A stretch of 64,000 nucleotides of DNA, taken from assembly GCA_963674735.2 (NCBI GenBank), contig CAXXQS010000002.1, positions 1,696,001-1,760,000 on the forward strand. Reading direction: 5' to 3'. How positions within the stretch are numbered: the stretch's first letter is position 1; each line of letters begins with the position of its first letter. Made by a program: the position numbers and the translations under genes. This DNA comes from Myxococcota bacterium (GTDB taxonomy: Bacteria; Myxococcota_A; SURF-8). The notes under the pieces were generated by a model. The model was not told where the DNA came from, did no database searches, and worked only from the letters and a program-made list of their open reading frames with translations. Shown here piece by piece: positions 11,911 to 42,507 of the stretch.

Positions 11911-13250
11911 GCCTGTTCCGGATGGACAACCTGGCGGCGACGATCGAGCGCACCGAGCCTTACACCATGCGCGGAAAAGTGCAGAAGGTAGTCGGTATGG
12001 TGGTCGAGGGTTATGCGCCGCGCGCGAAAGTAGGCTCGCTCTGCCGCATCTTTCCGGGTCCGGGCGTAACGCCGATTATGGCGGAAGTTGTCGGATTTCG
12101 CGGACATACGGCGCTGATGATGGCGCTTGGCGATATTCGCGGCGTGCGTATGGGTTCCACCATCGAGGTGGCCACCGTCGAAACAACCCTGTCTGTCGGA
12201 CCGCGTTTGCTGGGTCGGGTGGTGGACGGAATGGGGCAACCGCTGGATGGCAAAGGCCCCCTGAACCTGACGGATTCCATCCCTCTGTATGGAACGCCTT
12301 TGAACCCGTTGCAGCGGCGTCCGATCACCGAGAAGCTGGAGCTTGGGGTGCGTACGATCGATGGACTGATGACCTGCGGTAAAGGCCAGCGCATGGCGAT
12401 CATGGCCGGTTCCGGAGTCGGAAAGTCGGTTTTAATGGGCATGATCGCGCAGAACACGCGGGCGGATGTCAAAGTTATCGCTCTGATCGGCGAACGTGGC
12501 CGTGAAGTGAACAATTTCATTAACAATATCTTGACCGATAAAGGGCTGGCCACCTCTGTGGTTATTGCAGCTGCTTCCGACCAGCCACCGTTGATTCGTA
12601 TGCGTGGCGCTTTTGTCGCGACCGCTATCGCCGAATATTTCCGGGACCAGGGTCTTTCCGTTTTGTTGATGATGGATTCCATTACGCGTTTTGCCATGGC
12701 CCAACGTGAAATTGGCCTGGCGGTTGGTGAGCCGCCGACGACCAAAGGATATACGCCCTCCGTTTTTGCGGCGTTGCCCAAACTTTTGGAACGGGCCGGG
12801 ACAGCTTCGGGGGCAGGTACGATTACCGGTCTCTATACCGTTCTGGTGGAAGCCGATGATATGAATGACCCGGTGGCGGATTCGGTGCGCTCCATTCTGG
12901 ATGGACATATTGCCCTCTCTCGTGAAATGGCACAGCGAAATGTTTACCCGGCGGTGGATATTCTGGCATCGATTTCGCGTGTTATGAATGAGGTGGTGGA
13001 TGACCGCCATCAGGCTTTGGCCAATCGAATTCGCGAACTTTTAGCAAGTTATAGCAAGGCGGAAGATCTGATCAATATCGGAGCCTATGTCAAAGGCAAC
13101 AATCCGAAGATCGATGAAGCTCTGGCGCGTATCGACGATATTATCGCTTTTCAGCGACAAGGTATGCGAGAGCGTACGGATATGAAGACCGCGTTCAATG
13201 CCATGGAGGCGATTGTCAGCTCGGAAAGTCACAAGGAGGCGTCTGCGTGA
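11907..13250 (+). CDS. fliI: Flagellar export ATPase FliI
   Basis: AGSGVGKS Walker A, LIGERGREV, MDSITRFAMAQREIG. Confidence 0.96.
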   Translation: MSLFRMDNLAATIERTEPYTMRGKVQKVVGMVVEGYAPRAKVGSLCRIFPGPGVTPIMAEVVGFRGHTALMMALGDIRGVRMGSTIEVATVETTLSVGPRLLGRVVDGMGQPLDGKGPLNLTDSIPLYGTPLNPLQRRPITEKLELGVRTIDGLMTCGKGQRMAIMAGSGVGKSVLMGMIAQNTRADVKVIALIGERGREVNNFINNILTDKGLATSVVIAAASDQPPLIRMRGAFVATAIAEYFRDQGLSVLLMMDSITRFAMAQREIGLAVGEPPTTKGYTPSVFAALPKLLERAGTASGAGTITGLYTVLVEADDMNDPVADSVRSILDGHIALSREMAQRNVYPAVDILASISRVMNEVVDDRHQALANRIRELLASYSKAEDLINIGAYVKGNNPKIDEALARIDDIIAFQRQGMRERTDMKTAFNAMEAIVSSESHKEASA

Positions 13251-14002
13251 AAAAGGTCTATTTTCCCAATATGGTACCCAATCGTCGCTTAACCCGACCC
13301 CGGATTCTGCTGCTTGGTGGATTGCTTGGATTGGGGGTTTTCCTGCTTATCAGTCAGATAAACGAGGCAACCCAGGCGGACCTCTTGGATGCCATCGGTA
13401 CTCAGCCCGCTCAGGCGCAGGAAAAACTTCCGGCGAATGCGAATCTTAAAGAAGAAAATCCTGCCGATAATACGCAGGTTACCATCAACGCCCAGAAAAA
13501 AATCGACGATAAAGTTCAGGAAGGCGTTACATCGCAGGCTAGTGTTTCTCTGCAACAACGGAAAGCAAAAGAAGACGAGCTGGAGTTCAGGGAAAGTAAA
13601 CTAGGTGAAATTAAAAATGAAATTACCGATACCCTCACGACCATGCGCCGATTGCAAAACAACCTGGATATCAAGCTGAAAGAACAGCGATCGGACAACA
13701 TGAATGTGCGGGATCAACGTCTCGCAAAGCTGATCAAGATCGTAAACAGCATGCGTGCTGAAGAAGCGGCCCGTGTGTTGCCTGCCATGGAAGAGGATCT
13801 GGCGGTTAAAATTTTGGCATCCTTGTCGGGAGCCAAGGCAAGTAAAATCATGGGTGGATTGCCACCGGAGAAAGCAGCGGTGTTATCGGCGAAAATGGTG
13901 CAGCTCAAACCCGATGTTCGGCTGAAATACATCATGAAAAACTGGAAACAAATGGTCGAAGAAGAGGATAATCGTGGAAAAGCCCAGTCTAATCAAGAGT
14001 GA
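13247..14002 (+). CDS. MotE/FlbB-like protein (TM, coiled coil, MgtE-N-like helical repeats)
   Basis: IVNSMRAEEAARVLPAMEEDLAVKILASLSGAKASKIMGGLPPEKAA; position between fliI and fliK. Confidence 0.75.
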   Translation: MKKVYFPNMVPNRRLTRPRILLLGGLLGLGVFLLISQINEATQADLLDAIGTQPAQAQEKLPANANLKEENPADNTQVTINAQKKIDDKVQEGVTSQASVSLQQRKAKEDELEFRESKLGEIKNEITDTLTTMRRLQNNLDIKLKEQRSDNMNVRDQRLAKLIKIVNSMRAEEAARVLPAMEEDLAVKILASLSGAKASKIMGGLPPEKAAVLSAKMVQLKPDVRLKYIMKNWKQMVEEEDNRGKAQSNQE

Positions 14003-18426: not shown

Positions 18427-19200
18427 ATGGATCTGGCAACCATTATCGGATTGGTAGGTGCCTTTGGCGTGGTGATCGCCGGTATTCTGGTCGGATCGTC
18501 GATTCTCATTTTTATCGATATTCCGTCCGTCCTGATCGTCGGTATCGGCACTCTTTTTGCCGCGACGTCCGCCTATCGGCTCGGTGATATGGTCAATCTT
18601 GTGCGTGTGCTTAAAAACGCGTTTTTCACCTCGCAAAAACCCATCCAGAACATCGCTCGCACCATGATTGAGATGTCCATCCGGGCTAGAAAAGAGGGCT
18701 TGCTGGCGCTGGAGTCCATGCTCGGCGAAACCAAAGACGCTTTTTTAAGCAAGGGCATCCAATTGGTTGTGGATGGTCATGAAGTCGAAGATGTCGATAA
18801 AATTCTTTCTGCGGAAATCGAAGCGATCGAAACGCGTCACACCTTGAGTTCCGAGATCTTTTCCACCCTCGGAGCTTTCGCCCCGGCGCTTGGTTTGATC
18901 GGTACCCTGATCGGTCTGATCCAGATGCTTCAAAACATGGATGATCCGTCCAGTATTGGTCCGGCCATGTCGGTCGCCCTGATCACGACGTTCTACGGCG
19001 CTATTCTGGCCAACATGGTGTTCAATCCCTTGGCGAACAAACTTACCGTTCGAGCCAAGGAAGAAACCGAGATGAAAGAGATGGTTCTCTCCGGAATCCT
19101 GGCCATCTCAAATGGAGACAACCCGCGTATCGTGGAACAGAAATTGAATGCGTATCTATCCCCGAGTCAGCAGATCGATATGTTCGGCGCGGACGATTAG
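18427..19200 (+). CDS. motA: Flagellar stator A subunit (MotA/PomA-like)
   Basis: ARKEGLLALE, APALGLIGTLIGLI, ALITTFYG, GDNPR. Confidence 0.93.
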   Translation: MDLATIIGLVGAFGVVIAGILVGSSILIFIDIPSVLIVGIGTLFAATSAYRLGDMVNLVRVLKNAFFTSQKPIQNIARTMIEMSIRARKEGLLALESMLGETKDAFLSKGIQLVVDGHEVEDVDKILSAEIEAIETRHTLSSEIFSTLGAFAPALGLIGTLIGLIQMLQNMDDPSSIGPAMSVALITTFYGAILANMVFNPLANKLTVRAKEETEMKEMVLSGILAISNGDNPRIVEQKLNAYLSPSQQIDMFGADD

Positions 19201-19221: not shown

Positions 19222-19938
19222 ATGTCCAAGCGCAAGAAAAAAGAAAAAGAACCCAAGGCAGACAGCTTTACTGCCCTGTTTCTGGCTCTTACCATCATCC
19301 TGCTGGCCTTCTTTATTCTGTTGAATTCGATTGCTGAATTGGATACGCAACGCTGCAAGCGGGCCTTACGTTCTTTCCAGGCCGCTCGTGCCGGGATGGG
19401 GATCTTCGGTATGGGTATTGGACTGGATGAAACCAGCAAAAGTCCCGGTGGACCCGACTCGAAACTGACTATTTTAGACAACGTCCACGATCTCATTCAG
19501 CAATCGCTGACCAAATGGGGTGAAGGAAAAACTTGGATCGATGCTTACGAGGATGAGCGGCGATTGGTTATCAGTCTTCAGGATGTCGCGGTTTTCGATG
19601 CAGGTTCGCAAACCCTGCATCCGCGCATTTTCGGCTTTCTTGATGGTGTTGGGCAGATTGCCAAGCGTATTCAGGTTCCGATCACCATTCAAGGGCATTC
19701 CGATGCGACACCCTCGGGTGGTAAAGCCAGCAACTGGGAATTGTCGGCCGCTCGCGCCGGGGAAGTGGCCCGCTATATGACCGAAGGCGTGCATCTCCCG
19801 GAATCGTTGGTTGAAGCCGAGGCGTTTAGCTCCAATCGCCCCATTGCCGACAATTCGACCGCTGAAGGGCAGAATCGCAATCGCCGTGTCGATATGGTTT
19901 TCTATAAACGTGATTTGAATCGGCTTAAGGGACAGTAA
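19222..19938 (+). CDS. motB: MotB/OmpA-family stator B-like subunit lacking the conserved TM Asp
   Basis: TM FTALFLALTIILLAFFILL; intact OmpA-like motifs GHSD, NWELSAARA, NRRVD. Confidence 0.8.
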   Translation: MSKRKKKEKEPKADSFTALFLALTIILLAFFILLNSIAELDTQRCKRALRSFQAARAGMGIFGMGIGLDETSKSPGGPDSKLTILDNVHDLIQQSLTKWGEGKTWIDAYEDERRLVISLQDVAVFDAGSQTLHPRIFGFLDGVGQIAKRIQVPITIQGHSDATPSGGKASNWELSAARAGEVARYMTEGVHLPESLVEAEAFSSNRPIADNSTAEGQNRNRRVDMVFYKRDLNRLKGQ

Positions 19939-20678
19939 TGGCCAAGCCCGATAAAAATGCATGGATGGCGACTTTTTCGGATCTGGTGACTCTGTTGATC
20001 ACCTTCTTCGTGTTGTTGCTGACCATGTCCACCCTCGATAGCAGCCGTCTCAAGGAAATGTTTCAGTATTTTCCAGGAGCCAGCATGAATTTCGAAGGCG
20101 GTGCCTTTACTCAGCCTCCCAAAAGCCTGGTTGAAAAGATGCGAATCACCAGCCGGATCGGCCAGAAACGCTGGCTCGATGAGCATGATACGGAAACTTT
20201 TCAGGTTTTGACCCGCTGGCTGGAAGAACAGAAGCTTACGGATCACATGAAAGTGGTACGTCGTCAAGATGCTTTCGAAATCCACCTGGAGAATACAATC
20301 GCTTTTGCACCGGGAGCTTTGAATTTGAAGCCGCAGGTCGTTCCATTTTTCAAAGAAATCAAGGCTATGCTTGATGCGCAGAAAGACGTTCGGCTGCGTG
20401 TGGAGGTTGTGGCATCGGATAAAAGTGAACTTGACTATCAGAAAAAGTATACGTCTTTGTGGCAGTTGGCCGCCAAACGCGGTGATTCGATTATGACGCT
20501 CTTGGAACGCCGTCTTGGAGCGGATCCCAAGCGTTTGTCGATGATGGGTTATGGCGTTCCCCGACCTGTTACACAAAAAGGCGTGACCGACAAAAAAGAA
20601 AGTTTCGAAAACCGAATCGATCTGGTGTTCGTTGAAAATGACGATCCCAGCCGAAAAATCAACGCGAGGGAGGAGTGA
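19938..20678 (+). CDS. motB: MotB/PomB stator B subunit with the TM Asp and a degenerate OmpA domain
   Basis: WMATFSDLVTLLITFFVLL; SLWQLAAKRG, LSMMGYG, NRIDL. Confidence 0.85.
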   Translation: MAKPDKNAWMATFSDLVTLLITFFVLLLTMSTLDSSRLKEMFQYFPGASMNFEGGAFTQPPKSLVEKMRITSRIGQKRWLDEHDTETFQVLTRWLEEQKLTDHMKVVRRQDAFEIHLENTIAFAPGALNLKPQVVPFFKEIKAMLDAQKDVRLRVEVVASDKSELDYQKKYTSLWQLAAKRGDSIMTLLERRLGADPKRLSMMGYGVPRPVTQKGVTDKKESFENRIDLVFVENDDPSRKINAREE

Positions 20679-20682
20679 GAGG

Positions 20683-21222
20683 ATGGCGAAAAAGGACGAC
20701 GAAAACACCAATGAAGAAGGACAAAAGACCAAACCGGAGAAAAGTGGCGGAAGCCCTCTGGTTGTGATTCTTCTGGCTCTGAACATGTTGCTGGTTGCCG
20801 GTGTCGGTGCTTATGTCGTTTTCTTCGGTGGGATTGGGCAGGCTCCTGAAAAAGCGAATGATACGGTTGAAGCCGAACAAACCGAAGAATCGGATGAAAA
20901 GAAAGACACGGGTGTTACGATCGGACCGATTGTCGAAATGCAGCCGTTTCTGGTTAACCTGGATGAACCGGGAACCAATCGCTATCTCAAGGCGTCGATT
21001 CAATTGGAATTGGATGGACCCAATGGACAGACGGAAGCGCAGACACGCCAGGTTCCGCTTCGCGATCTGATTATTACCTATCTGTCGTCACTGAATTACA
21101 GTCAGACCCAGGGAGTGGTCAACAAGGAAATTATTCGAACTTCGATGATCAAGCAAATCAACGAAGTGCTTCGTCAAGGCAAAGTGAACAACCTTTACTT
21201 TACGGAGTTTGTGATTCAGTAG
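20683..21222 (+). CDS. fliL: FliL
   Basis: N-terminal TM, PFLVNL, RYLKASI, LYFTEFVIQ; ATG after GGAGG/GAGG. Confidence 0.92.
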   Translation: MAKKDDENTNEEGQKTKPEKSGGSPLVVILLALNMLLVAGVGAYVVFFGGIGQAPEKANDTVEAEQTEESDEKKDTGVTIGPIVEMQPFLVNLDEPGTNRYLKASIQLELDGPNGQTEAQTRQVPLRDLIITYLSSLNYSQTQGVVNKEIIRTSMIKQINEVLRQGKVNNLYFTEFVIQ

Positions 21223-22700: not shown

Positions 22701-24035
22701 ATGCCACGCTTCGTTTCTCTAATTTTGGTGCTTCTGGTGTGTCTGATCGCTTATGCACCGGAAGTCAAGGCGGCCAAAGCGACACGGACTTTGACCGGGA
22801 TCGATTTCAGTGCGGATGATGCCCTTTCACAGATTCATCTGGCCTTTGAGGGAGATACGGCTCGCCCCCTGGGACGCGTGTATTACTCAGACAAACTTAT
22901 CCGTGTCGTTATCAGCAAAACAAGTTTGGCGAAGGGGCAGAAGAAACTACTGATCACTCCCAAAGACGATCTGGTGACCAAGGTATATGCCTATCCGCGC
23001 AAGGGTGCCATTCAACTGAAGATTTATCTGAAAAAGAAGGTTCAGTCGATTATGGAACGTATCGACTTTGAACCTGGCGCAACCGTCTCGACCATCAGCT
23101 TTCGAAAAGAGCCGTTTTACACCAGATTGGCACAGAGGGAGCGCCCGGGTGCTCAGATCGTTCAAGTGATTGAAACGGGGACGAAAACACCGGATATGGC
23201 GGATGACGAAGAAAAACCGACGGCCGCGACGGTGAATAGCCTCCTGCCTTTGGTTAACCCCAAGCGCAATCCAGCAGCGTCCGCCACCCCCGATCCTTTG
23301 GCGGAAGCCGCGCGCCAGAAAACCCTGGCGCAACTGTTGGGTGAAGATGCGGAAGAGGCGACGGCGGGTGTCGGAGAGAAGAAAAACGACGAGCTCATTG
23401 CCGCAGCCAAAGAAAACAAAGCGAAAGATGTCGCCGCCGATGCAGGCAAGCCACCGTCGGACCCGATGCTGGACGACAGCAAAGTCGAAACCGTGTTGCC
23501 GAATATGGGTGAAAAACGAGATGGGATTCAGGGAGTCGGGGATTTCGCACCCGACCTCACCAACCTGTATTGGATGGCGGGGATGATGGTCTTGGTGGCT
23601 CTGCTGTGGTTACTCGCTCGTCGCGGAAAACTGATGAATCTGCAAGGGGTTAATGGCCCGCTGAAGGTGATCAAATCGCAAAGTCTGGGGGGCAAGCAGC
23701 GGCTGTTGATTGTCGAAGTGGAGGGCAAGCGGCTTTTACTGTCTTCATCGGACAAAGAACTTCGGCTGATCACGGAAATCGATCGTGACGGGGCCGCCGA
23801 TGAGCAGATGAAGGCTGCGTTGATGTCCGGAATCAAAACTTCCGAGGCGAACGCTCAAGACCCCAACTTGCGAGTGGTTCGGGAAAAGAAGCCGGGGATC
23901 GCCAAAGCGCGGCCCGCGGCCAAACCGCCGGTCGCCTCTGGGGAGCGTCCGTCATATTTTGGCTTTAAGGATGGTTCAAAACCGGCGGAAACCGGCCTTC
24001 GGGAAAAGCTTCGAGCTTTACGTAGGGGAAGGTGA
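22701..24035 (+). CDS. fliO: FliO with a large N-terminal periplasmic extension
   Basis: Signal peptide, beta-rich domain, single TM near residue 290, FliO core LKVIKSQSLGGKQRLLIVEVEGKRLLL; between fliN and fliP. Confidence 0.8.
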   Translation: MPRFVSLILVLLVCLIAYAPEVKAAKATRTLTGIDFSADDALSQIHLAFEGDTARPLGRVYYSDKLIRVVISKTSLAKGQKKLLITPKDDLVTKVYAYPRKGAIQLKIYLKKKVQSIMERIDFEPGATVSTISFRKEPFYTRLAQRERPGAQIVQVIETGTKTPDMADDEEKPTAATVNSLLPLVNPKRNPAASATPDPLAEAARQKTLAQLLGEDAEEATAGVGEKKNDELIAAAKENKAKDVAADAGKPPSDPMLDDSKVETVLPNMGEKRDGIQGVGDFAPDLTNLYWMAGMMVLVALLWLLARRGKLMNLQGVNGPLKVIKSQSLGGKQRLLIVEVEGKRLLLSSSDKELRLITEIDRDGAADEQMKAALMSGIKTSEANAQDPNLRVVREKKPGIAKARPAAKPPVASGERPSYFGFKDGSKPAETGLREKLRALRRGR

Positions 24036-39776: not shown

Positions 39777-41075
39777 TCAGCCTTTTCCGTTCGAAAGAAT
39801 CGGTTGCCCGTGGGGGTCGGTGTCGGGATGGTCCACCGCCTGCGCCACGTCTTGTAGAAGTTTGTCGTTGATGAAGTGTTCCATACGGTCGGCCGGACTA
39901 TGCAGATGATCGTCGGGCAACGGGGAATGTTTGGCCAGGAAGCTTTCCCATAGACGATGTCCGCGTATCAGCTTTCCGGCTTCTTTGCGGCCCTCATCGG
40001 ACAGGCTGAATCCGTCGGCCGCTCGTTGCATGAGACCGCGCCAGGTCAGCATGTTCAAAGCAAGGGTGTGGCCTGTGCGACCGCTCATGGCCTCGACGAT
40101 GGCGTTGCGCGGCATGGCGCTTCCTGACCCGCGTTCCTGCCAACGATAGACCAACGCCATGATGTCTTCACGCTGAATCCGCAATTTGACCCGCAGTTGG
40201 AACAGGGTACGTGCCACAACGCCGTAATGCGGTCCGAACAGCACCGCCAGGACGAAATGCGCACCGGCCGCGACCGCCATCATGCCGGCAACCGAAGTGT
40301 CCAGCATCAGGGCCGATTCACGCCCCAGAACCGCAGATGAAATACCCACCACAACCGACAGCAGCACCATCCAGTGCATGCGATCGGTGAGCAGATACGC
40401 GGTCGCCGAGGGGACCACCAGCATGGCGACCACCAAAATGGACCCGACCGCTTCGAAAGCCACGACGGTAAAGCCTGCAACCATGGCCATCAGCAGATAG
40501 TGGATCAATGTTGTCGGCAAGCCGAGGGTGGTGGCCAGATTCGGGTCGAAACTGACGATCTTCAGCTCTTTCCAGAACAGTCCCACGAACGCGATGATGA
40601 TGACGGTGGCAATCGCCAGTGTGAGCGTCATGCGCGGGATCTCCAGCCCTGCAAGGCTGATCGTATCCAGCGCGGCCGATTCCAGAATACCGTAGAGCAC
40701 GCAGCCCGGGTCCAGATCGACCTGGCTGGCGACTCGGCTGATCAGGATTACGCCGAGGGCGAACAGCGAGGTGAAGACAACGCCGATGGCGGCGTCTTCG
40801 GCGACGCGGGCGAAACGGCGGATCAGCTCGGTCAGCAGAACGGTCGCGAGACCGGCCAGCGCCGCTCCGATCAGCATGGGGATGGGGTGGCGGCTCTGGG
40901 CGACCACGAAGGCGATGGCCAGGCCCGGCAAGACGGCGTGTGAAATCGCATCCCCCAGCAGGCTCATGCGGCGCAGAACGAGGTAATTGCCCAGCAACGC
41001 TCCCGAAACATTCACCAGAATGCCGGTTGCGATGATCCAAAATCCGATGGCGTCAAATCCGAGTACGGTATCCAT
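39777..41075 (-). CDS. Mn/Fe/Zn ABC permease (TroD/MntD-like) with a fused DtxR-like C-terminal domain
   Basis: GDAISHAVLPG, DAAIG, EAVGSILV; C-terminal LSDEGRKEAGKLIRGHRLWESFL...ADRMEH...DPHGQPI. Confidence 0.9.
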   Translation of the reverse strand: MDTVLGFDAIGFWIIATGILVNVSGALLGNYLVLRRMSLLGDAISHAVLPGLAIAFVVAQSRHPIPMLIGAALAGLATVLLTELIRRFARVAEDAAIGVVFTSLFALGVILISRVASQVDLDPGCVLYGILESAALDTISLAGLEIPRMTLTLAIATVIIIAFVGLFWKELKIVSFDPNLATTLGLPTTLIHYLLMAMVAGFTVVAFEAVGSILVVAMLVVPSATAYLLTDRMHWMVLLSVVVGISSAVLGRESALMLDTSVAGMMAVAAGAHFVLAVLFGPHYGVVARTLFQLRVKLRIQREDIMALVYRWQERGSGSAMPRNAIVEAMSGRTGHTLALNMLTWRGLMQRAADGFSLSDEGRKEAGKLIRGHRLWESFLAKHSPLPDDHLHSPADRMEHFINDKLLQDVAQAVDHPDTDPHGQPILSNGKG

Positions 41076-41100
41076 GGTGTCATCTCCACGGGGTTGAGTA

Positions 41101-42507
41101 TCAGGCGTGCTCGCCTTCCGTTAACGGGTGTACGGAGCTTGGCGCAGTGGCGGGCCAACGTCCGGCGGCCTGTAGCTTCTGTTCGAGATCTTTGAGGATT
41201 TCGGGCGTCAGCACGTGTTCGATCTCGTCGGCGTCGCGATGGACGTGGTCGGACGCGATGGAAGCCTGTTCCACCAGGTAGACTTCCCATAGTCGATGCG
41301 CCCGCACGATCTGGGCAGCGTGCCGCCGTCCGGCTTCCGTCAAACGCCAACCGGTCGGATGGCTCTCGACTTCGCCGAGCAGCCGTCCCCACCAGCTTAA
41401 CACCTGTAATTGGCGCGGCGACCACGAGCGCAACTTGAGCAGCACCGAGGGTGTAATCGGGATGTCGATGTTTTCATTTTCTTCGGCGGCTTCGAACAAG
41501 GTGCGTAGCAGATTCTGTCGGGCAATGCGCAAACGGGTGGTGAGTTCCAGTAAACTGCGCGCGATCAATCCCCGGCGCGGGGCCACCAGCATGCTGATCA
41601 TGAAGACCGCCGATCCCGACAAGACAATCACGGCTCCGGCGGGCAAGTCCGCGAATTGAGCGCTGGCGTAGGTGCCGACAAAACCGGTCAGCAACCCGAA
41701 GAATCCCGCCAGCGGGACCAGGACGTGCAGTTTATCCGTCCAGAAACGCGCCGAGACTCCCGGAATGATCAGCATGGCGGCGATCAGCACCACACCTACG
41801 GCGGGCAGGCCGATCACGGTGGTGAATACCAGAAGCGCCATCAACAAACCATCGAGAACCAGTACCGGCCAACCGAGCACGGCCGCGAAATCGGGATCGA
41901 AGCCGATCAGTTTGAATTCTTTATAGAGCAGGGCCACCATAACCAGAACGTTGGCCGCAACCAGCGCGATGGTCAGCAGATCCTGGCTGATCATACCGGC
42001 CGTTTTTCCGAGCAAAAAGGCGTCGAGTCCGGCTTGCTGGCCTGTGGGATCGTCCTGGATGATGCGTGAGAGGGCGATACCCAGACCGAACAACACGCTC
42101 AACACGATTCCGATGGCGGCATCGGACTTGATGCGGGTATGGCGTATCAGCCAAGAGATGGCCAGACTACCCAAAATACCGCTGATGGCGGCGCCGGTCA
42201 GCATACCGATGAAGTTGCGTTCGCCGATGAGCATAAAAGCGATGGCCAGGCCGGGTAGGGCGGCATGCGCCACCGCGTCGCCCACCAGGGAGCGCTTTTT
42301 CAAGACGGCGAAAGCCCCGACGACACCCGAGGTCAGGCCCAGCAGACTCGTGCCCAGCCAGATCAGAAACGAGTTGTAATGCAAACCGAAAAGATCGGCC
42401 AGTACGACGATCCCTTGCTGGATCGGTTCGAGGCCGAAAGCTTCGACGGCGGTGATCTCAAGCGCCAGCGCTACCGGGATAAGCCATAGCAATCCAAAGC
42501 GTTGCAT
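41101..42507 (-). CDS. Mn/Fe/Zn ABC permease (TroC/MntC-like) with a fused DtxR-like C-terminal domain
   Basis: GDAVAHAALPG; LTEAGRRHAAQIVRAHRLWEVYL...HRDADEIEH. Confidence 0.9.
   Translation of the reverse strand: MQRFGLLWLIPVALALEITAVEAFGLEPIQQGIVVLADLFGLHYNSFLIWLGTSLLGLTSGVVGAFAVLKKRSLVGDAVAHAALPGLAIAFMLIGERNFIGMLTGAAISGILGSLAISWLIRHTRIKSDAAIGIVLSVLFGLGIALSRIIQDDPTGQQAGLDAFLLGKTAGMISQDLLTIALVAANVLVMVALLYKEFKLIGFDPDFAAVLGWPVLVLDGLLMALLVFTTVIGLPAVGVVLIAAMLIIPGVSARFWTDKLHVLVPLAGFFGLLTGFVGTYASAQFADLPAGAVIVLSGSAVFMISMLVAPRRGLIARSLLELTTRLRIARQNLLRTLFEAAEENENIDIPITPSVLLKLRSWSPRQLQVLSWWGRLLGEVESHPTGWRLTEAGRRHAAQIVRAHRLWEVYLVEQASIASDHVHRDADEIEHVLTPEILKDLEQKLQAAGRWPATAPSSVHPLTEGEHA

Follow-up and report, generated by a model that had tools for sequence, protein, structure and literature searches.

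One motA gene and two unlike motB genes in a flagellar operon

The locus analyzed here raises the question of how a flagellar stator can work when one motA gene is followed by two motB genes and one of the two MotB proteins lacks the aspartate that binds the driving ion. The genes are located in a 64,000-nucleotide stretch of DNA from a Myxococcota bacterium (the window; all coordinates are positions within it), in a flagellar operon with the order fliF, fliG, fliH, fliI, an MgtE_N-domain gene, fliK, flgD, flgE, motA, two motB genes, fliL, fliM, fliN, fliO, fliP, fliQ, fliR and flhB. The motA gene (18427–19200, plus strand) encodes a PomA-like A subunit of 257 aa, as judged by its PomA match and by tblastn. 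After a gap of 21 nt it is followed by the gene for MotB-1 (19222–19938, plus strand; 238 aa), an Asp-less MotB paralogue, and then by that for MotB-2 (19938–20678, plus strand; 246 aa), which bears the Asp; both assignments were based on Pfam, AlphaFold2 models and fold matches. The initial annotation had described one motA followed by two motB genes with a TAATG overlap, an arrangement borne out by the coordinates and the sequence: the stop/start overlap lies at 19936–19940 (plus strand) and is confined to the two motB genes. The fliL gene (20683–21222, plus strand; Pfam FliL, E 3.6e-22), encoding the stator-associated ring protein, is located directly 3′ of motB-2, and the same arrangement was seen in most related loci. 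MotB-1 and MotB-2 are 23% identical overall, and their transmembrane (TM) regions are 31% identical over 26 residues.

Other features of the window were also recorded. A membrane-anchored MgtE_N-domain gene (13247–14002) occupies the position right after fliI, the usual place of fliJ; we take its product to be MotE/FlgY-like and hence a possible stator scaffold. Both fliJ and the flagellin genes are located elsewhere in the genome. The fliO gene (22701–24035) is unusually long, encoding 444 aa, about 290 of which precede the FliO domain. Further downstream (39780–42507) is a tandem pair of ABC-3 metal permeases, both carrying a fused DtxR-type dimerisation domain, with a DtxR regulator and a ZnuA-type binding protein as neighbors.

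Analysis of the whole genome (94% complete, 3 contigs) revealed one MotA by tblastn and only two MotB_plug matches, those of the pair. Eight further MotA_ExbB matches, none of them found by MotA in tblastn, were taken as ExbB/TolQ types. The pair was likewise the entire MotB_plug content in three of five genomes of one set (G003, G004 and G008) and in four of ten others tested (G065, G066, G069 and G070), additional MotB genes being present in the remaining genomes of both groups. In a Scalindua genome (L111:3178–4672), where the pair is again all of the MotB content, the gene order is swapped, with the Asp-bearing gene first, and the Asp-less copy has a degraded wall motif.

MotB-1 is a B subunit by domain content but lacks the ion site

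MotB-1 scored above the Pfam cut-offs for MotB_plug (PF13677; 32.2 bits, cut-off 24 bits) and OmpA (PF00691; 60.8 bits, cut-off 27.2 bits), as did MotB-2 (53.3 and 27.9 bits, respectively). AlphaFold2 models of both proteins were built from 79-row alignments. The MotB-1 model (mean pLDDT 81.8) comprises one TM helix, a plug helix, a disordered linker and a canonical OmpA-like domain, and its best fold match was the periplasmic domain of MotS (E 1.7e-13). An Asp-less MotB-1 and an Asp-bearing MotB-2 had been proposed from the window alone, and both assignments held in alignments with the solved MotB proteins of C. sporogenes and B. subtilis and with 120 homologues. In MotB-1, the column of the ion-binding Asp was occupied, ungapped, by Ala22 (codon 19285–19287, plus strand), with Phe16 and Leu19 in place of the conserved Trp and Thr that precede it; MotB-2 has Asp15 (codon 19980–19982, plus strand; equivalent to PomB D24), preceded by Trp9 and Thr12 (equivalent to PomB T21). 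MotB-1 therefore has the TM helix, plug and OmpA-like domain of a MotB/PomB B subunit but not its Asp.

No replacement for the missing carboxylate was apparent. The initial annotation had named a compensating acidic residue in register as a finding that would speak against its proposal; none was found in register, and Asp or Glu occurred between −6 and +14 in only 2 of 112 Asp-less helices, at −6 and −5. In Vibrio, PomA N194D is reported to suppress PomB D24N (PMC11725901); the equivalent MotA residue, Asn196, was Asn in 179 of 180 MotAs and Thr in the other, and was never acidic. The change in the B helix is also broader than one residue. The Thr at −3 was replaced by Leu or Met in 98 of 112 Asp-less helices and the Trp at −6 was gone, as against Thr or Ser at −3 in 112/112 and Trp at −6 in 111/112 partner helices. 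MotB-1 thus appears to have lost the whole ion site, beyond the Asp alone.

The two periplasmic domains differ in the opposite sense. MotB-1 had been credited with a canonical OmpA wall-binding motif, and all nine scored positions were indeed present (Gly158 to Val223; 19693–19890, plus strand). The peptidoglycan-binding motif comprises TD-x10-LS-x2-RA, as defined in 10.1101/641415. NRRV is a further part of it. The motif of MotB-2, which had been called degraded, was present at only 2–3 of the nine positions, but it is not erased, as Asp161 (displaced by one residue), Leu177 and Arg181 are kept. MotB-2 also retains the OmpA-like fold (mean pLDDT 80.4) and matches MotB and MotS periplasmic domains, while its model is without the short helix that precedes the last strand in the MotB-1 model. 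Anchoring by MotB-2 has likely been lost; it is only likely because SiiA is reported to bind peptidoglycan with a reduced L-x3-R motif alone (10.1101/641415), and Leu177 and Arg181 are retained in the window protein.

The A subunit carries a sodium-type signature

The best solved match of MotA was Vibrio PomA (E 5.8e-65); its match to the NCBIfam PomA model (E 1.4e-83) was below the cut-off. MotA contains Thr160, Thr187 and Thr188, corresponding to PomA T158, T185 and T186, in addition to Arg88 and Glu96. According to PMC10374538, every Na+-driven stator conserves these three threonines, H+ types having Ala instead; one Na+ site of PomAB is made of PomA oxygens alone, and the other has PomB T21 and D24 as ligands. 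The latter two are both present in MotB-2 (Thr12 and Asp15), whereas neither is present in MotB-1 (Leu19 and Ala22). Among the MotAs of Asp-less loci, the three threonines were found in 176, 179 and 180 of 180 proteins, the four misses at the first position being gaps. By this signature the stator is of the Na+ type, so PomB D24 is a better reference for the MotB-2 Asp than E. coli D32, which had been used in the original description. The genome also contains one NqrB/RnfD-family gene, consistent with, but no proof of, a Na+ cycle.

Asp-less MotB proteins form an old family that is almost always paired

To determine how widespread the Asp-less protein is, a survey of the Asp-less/Asp-bearing pair across relatives having been suggested at the outset, we scanned 185,579 genomes for ILLAFFI[LM]L, a pattern that does not cover the Asp position. 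The scan returned 281 matches and 119 relatives. Each of the 80 loci retained from it (80/80) was without the Asp; 79 adjoined an Asp-bearing motB and the other lay at a contig edge. The closest titled relative, 59% identical, is labelled Myxococcota (L033). A TM profile was built to go beyond the pattern, and genome samples of several phyla and 80 metagenome loci were added. In the window's own phylum, 38 of 301 genomes matched, and 12 of the 30 loci inspected, the window included, were Asp-less. The G061 phylum had matches in 80 of 301 genomes; 38 of its 70 inspected loci were Asp-less, 37 with a partner seen. In the phylum of G063, 8 of 120 genomes matched, 7 of them Asp-less, and in that of G064, 17 of 88, all Asp-less with a partner. 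Titles of Asp-less loci name Myxococcota, Desulfobacterales, Desulfarculia, SAR324, Nitrospirae and Scalindua, which places the family in Myxococcota, Desulfobacterota, SAR324, Nitrospirota and Scalindua; cultured carriers are Desulfarculus baarsii (P0293) and Dethiosulfatarculus sandiegensis (P0333). A search of plasmids with the MotB-1 helix gave 3 chance matches at E 9.

Altogether, 180 of 188 distinct Asp-less copies adjoined an Asp-bearing motB on the same strand, 7 were cut off by contig ends and 1 stood alone; the pairing seen in the window is thus no accident of one locus. The motA gene was located beside 179 of the 188; the upstream DNA was too short in 6 and motA was not found in 3. 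The Asp column of the 180 paired copies held Ser in 114, Ala in 54, Thr in 8, Gly in 3 and Cys in 1. That none of the 180 has Asp follows from the definition of the set, while the 80/80 pattern-found loci are independent of the position. The lone copy (L297:955–1668, in G616) is followed by a small unrelated ORF, and its genome has four other MotB_plug matches, all Asp-bearing. One protein, P0408, has both MotB_plug and HD-domain Pfam matches and is 52% identical to an Asp-less MotB over 37% of its length, a possible fusion or assembly artefact. Other arrangements also occur in Myxococcota. Some loci have motA, a single Asp-bearing motB and fliL (L014, L016, L019, L021 and L195–L202). Others have motA and two Asp-bearing motB genes with TM regions 77–100% identical (L018, L206, L208 and L210); in these, the first motB has a degraded wall motif, and the pairs are Aquifex-like and lie outside the Asp-less clade.

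We then examined the ancestry of the family with a FastTree phylogeny of 343 MotB proteins, from which the Asp column and its neighbouring columns had been removed. The 124 Asp-less rows fell into one set that included a single Asp-bearing row (support 97), and 115 of 120 Asp-bearing partners fell into its sister set. In a tree of the periplasmic part only, a single Asp-less clade was not recovered, with 10 changes, at least 3 of them forced; the case for a single origin is therefore based on the first tree, in which most of the TM helix is represented. The Asp-less MotB proteins are an old family and essentially one clade. The median dN/dS was 0.16 for MotB-1 and 0.14 for MotB-2 over 21 independent close pairs (25 computed, 4 dropped as saturated). 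The possibility that MotB-1 is a decaying pseudogene, which had been listed as a potential refutation, does not hold for the family. The view that MotB-1 is a redundant duplicate heading for loss can practically be set aside: single-motB operons do exist in Myxococcota and the MotB-1 wall motif is eroded in 9 of 151 pairs, but for the family this reading is refuted by an intact gene found as essentially one clade across several phyla, with a dN/dS like its partner's.

At L209:1213–3126 (G548), one gene is a MotB-1 orthologue, its periplasmic part scoring 408 against a relative's MotB-1 and 60 against MotB-2, with an Asp-bearing TM helix nearly identical to that of its partner; this Asp-bearing pair has one intact and one degraded wall motif. 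The helix is probably a reversion by gene conversion. Tandem Asp-bearing motB genes, with no motA in the 2–4 kb of sequence covered, were found at L146, L148, L149, L151–L153, L156–L158, L160 and L161. One member of each pair falls with the Asp-less family in the tree of periplasmic parts, and the duplication may therefore be older than the Asp loss.

Complementary loss of the wall motif is a derived state

The pair had been interpreted as showing complementary losses, of the Asp in one chain and of the wall motif in the other. This is true of the window but not of the family. Scoring the motif as kept at 7 or more of 9 positions in 151 complete pairs, we found it kept in both chains in 91, in the Asp-less chain only in 31 (the window-like state), in the Asp-bearing chain only in 12 and in neither in 17. 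When loss was defined strictly (4 or fewer positions), it affected only MotB-2 in 34 pairs, only MotB-1 in 5, both in 4 and neither in 108; these counts come from a realignment, and the scores of L121–L123, L126, L131, L133, L137 and L141 are alignment-dependent (6 versus 2–3). Four of these loci, L131, L133, L137 and L141, show the reverse of the window, with 1/9 positions in the Asp-less chain and 6/9 in the Asp-bearing one. The 17 pairs in which both motifs are degraded at the 7-of-9 threshold compare with about 9 expected under independent loss, so the losses are not mutually exclusive, and strict reciprocal loss is ruled out by the counts over the 151 pairs. Degraded partners of the window type fall together in a single clade of 35 rows, mostly myxococcotal (support 93). 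Among 42 partners with a degraded motif, 34 still have its Arg and 8 its Asp; the window MotB-2 keeps both. On the tree and the counts, complementary loss is best read as a derived state that does not define the family.

A proposed mixed stator with a single ion site

Our favored reading, held at about even odds, is that MotB-1 and MotB-2 join in one MotA5–MotB1–MotB2 unit with a single ion site. The initial annotation had suggested either such an asymmetric dimer, one chain conducting ions and the other anchoring to the wall, or an Asp-less subunit serving as a clutch or brake, and the analysis supports this in part. In such a unit, one asymmetric Na+-driven motor would be built from three genes, with the TM helices of MotB-1 and MotB-2 both in the MotA pore. 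Thr12 and Asp15 of MotB-2 would form the sole ion-accepting site, taking Na+ from the MotA threonine cavity, while MotB-1 would be a passive half-axle whose apolar ion face should keep its half-channel from leaking; in the window's lineage, MotB-1 may also be the main peptidoglycan anchor. The single site would be passed once per turn by each MotA, giving 5, not 10, ions per MotA revolution when the a × b rule for ions per turn (PMC9389320) is applied to one site. The ion cost would be halved and the stall torque at most half.

Several observations favor the mixed unit. The 180 of 188 Asp-less copies adjoining an Asp-bearing motB, the equal purifying selection on the two genes, and the status of the pair as the only stator in several near-complete genomes all point to partnership. 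MotB-1 keeps a helix of the MotA-pore type and a plug above the Pfam cut-off, yet without an ion site; a homodimer of Asp-less chains cannot conduct, yet the gene is selected, coupled and part of the only stator. L209, where MotB-1 carries an Asp helix seemingly copied from its partner, suggests that the MotB-1 slot accepts a normal pore helix. A heterodimeric axle also has a precedent in the AlphaFold model of AglR5–AglQ–AglS (PMC11761067). That MotB-1 anchors for MotB-2 is suggested by the partner having lost motif quality along one myxococcotal clade, where MotB-1 mostly has not.

The main objection comes from published models, which require two Asp residues that either alternate or are loaded together (PMC9389320; 10.1101/2023.03.05.530362); under them, a one-Asp unit would stall. 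In addition, MotB-2 homodimers look self-sufficient in most lineages, as 91 of 151 pairs keep both motifs; some Myxococcota manage with motA, a single Asp-bearing motB and fliL; and the lone copy at L297 stands without a neighboring partner, although four other Asp-bearing MotB matches occur in its genome. Against the division of anchoring stands the retention of Asp161, Leu177 and Arg181 in the window MotB-2. Coevolution of the two chains gave no clear signal. Mean-field DCA over 151 pairs (effective number, 127) placed four near-register TM pairs among the top 25, alongside obvious artefacts. At one of them, Asn35–Leu28, a MotB-1 Asn occurred with a MotB-2 Leu in 76 of 88 pairs and a non-Asn residue with Leu in 7 of 63, but the association was not significant in an independent-pairs test (median p 0.125) and ranked 760 of 36,099 on the tree, where TM pairs out of register (mean Z 0.69) scored nearly as high as those in register (0.82).

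The first alternative is that MotA5(MotB-2)2 is an ordinary two-Asp engine and MotB-1, within the pore, an ion-dead brake, clutch, load sensor or MotA store, a homodimer of MotB-1 or a stalled mixed unit filling stator slots and thereby tuning torque. We consider this rather unlikely. It agrees with two-Asp models and with MotB-2 being complete on its own in 91 of 151 pairs; PomAB(D24N), moreover, is reported to assemble with a near-identical structure and to conduct no Na+ (PMC11725901), and Borrelia to have motor-retained but disengaged stators (10.64898/2026.10.14.759253). But the overlap suggests roughly equal amounts of the two chains, in which case random pairing would leave only a quarter of the sole stator working, and in the window's clade a perfect anchor would be carried by the dummy, whereas that of the supposed engine is degraded.

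Alternatively, MotB-1 could lie outside MotA as a single-pass, wall-binding accessory on the MotB-2 periplasmic domain or the FliL ring, anchoring or recruiting an ordinary MotA5(MotB-2)2 as MotK/MotE or MotX do elsewhere. Such a role, distinctly less probable in our view, would account for the partnership, the selection and the relaxed anchoring of MotB-2 while leaving a two-Asp cycle intact, and there are known examples of periplasmic proteins that bind MotB and assist the stator (PMC10954123). By a crude measure, the MotB-1 plug helix is also less amphipathic (median moment 0.30, versus 0.45 in partners and 0.36 in single MotB proteins). Against it, MotB-1 retains the Phe-Phe core and the register of a MotB helix. 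The C-terminal half of this helix is also strongly conserved, including in copies not selected for it by the search pattern (Phe29-Phe30 was invariant in 31 of 31 copies found by HMM), and a simple anchor would have no need of such features. The helix replacement in L209 points to the same structural slot.

A third possibility, that MotB-1 conducts Na+ without an Asp, a Ser/Thr hydroxyl at that position and the threonine cavity of MotA serving instead so that both half-channels work, is very improbable. One PomAB Na+ site does consist of PomA oxygens alone (PMC10374538), and 122 of 180 paired copies have Ser or Thr in place of the Asp. But 54 copies, the window included, have Ala and 3 have Gly there, the Thr at −3 is lost too, PomB D24N is reported to block Na+ flux fully (PMC11725901), and MotA shows no change at the suppressor site.

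Comparison with known stators

In Vibrio PomA5PomB2 (8bri, 8zyv) and in MotA5MotB2 (6ysf, 6ysl, 6ykm), the likeness to the window lies in a PomA-like A subunit with three Na+ threonines, in B subunits with TM, plug and OmpA-like domains, and in the adjoining fliL within the flagellar operon; the difference is that the window has two unlike B genes per A gene, one of them Asp-less. The Asp has been called universally conserved among stator families (PMC10374538). On alignment, MotB-2 is a member of the PomB/MotB family, while MotB-1 lacks the residue that defines it. The Aquifex aeolicus operon motA–motB1–motB2 is also Na+-driven and has one motA and tandem motB genes, with strongly divergent periplasmic parts (23% identity), but its N-terminal and TM regions are 97% identical with one Gly/Ser difference, compared with 31% here and one chain without an ion site, and each Aquifex MotB is reported to work with MotA as a chimera (PMC4525482). 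Myxococcus xanthus AglR–AglQ–AglS combines one A-type and two B-type genes and its predicted structure is a pentamer that encloses a heterodimeric axle (PMC11761067); it is TolQR-type, serves gliding rather than flagella, and both AglQ and AglS are described as having the conserved Asp (PMC9389320). MotK/MotE (PMC10954123) and the Borrelia FapA clutch (10.64898/2026.10.14.759253) also recruit, anchor or disengage stators, but as described there they are not MotB paralogues and are without a MotB-type TM helix; the available text of PMC10954123 describes no Asp-less MotB. We found no published Asp-less or heterodimeric flagellar MotB in a literature that covered few subscription papers and whose supplementary alignments could contain such sequences; the Asp-less MotB twin is thus an apparently unreported variant of the stator B subunit.

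Implications for two-site models of rotary motors

In the models of 5:2 motors considered here (MotAB, PomAB and, by extension, ExbBD and TolQR), the two residues that bind ions are equivalent and each turn uses 10 ions. That a large group of Desulfobacterota, Myxococcota, SAR324 and Nitrospirota has a natural one-Asp MotA5–MotB1–MotB2 stator, advancing 72 degrees per ion with 5 ions per revolution and, in the window's lineage, dividing conduction and anchoring between the two chains, has in our view a little less than an even chance of being right. If true, the one-Asp stator would be a low-cost gear, and 5:2 motors would not need two alternating ion sites; if units containing MotB-1 are instead dead, a stator subunit turned into a built-in brake would likewise be new. 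A natural and selected one-Asp unit would provide a direct test of two-site models of 5:2 rotary motors.
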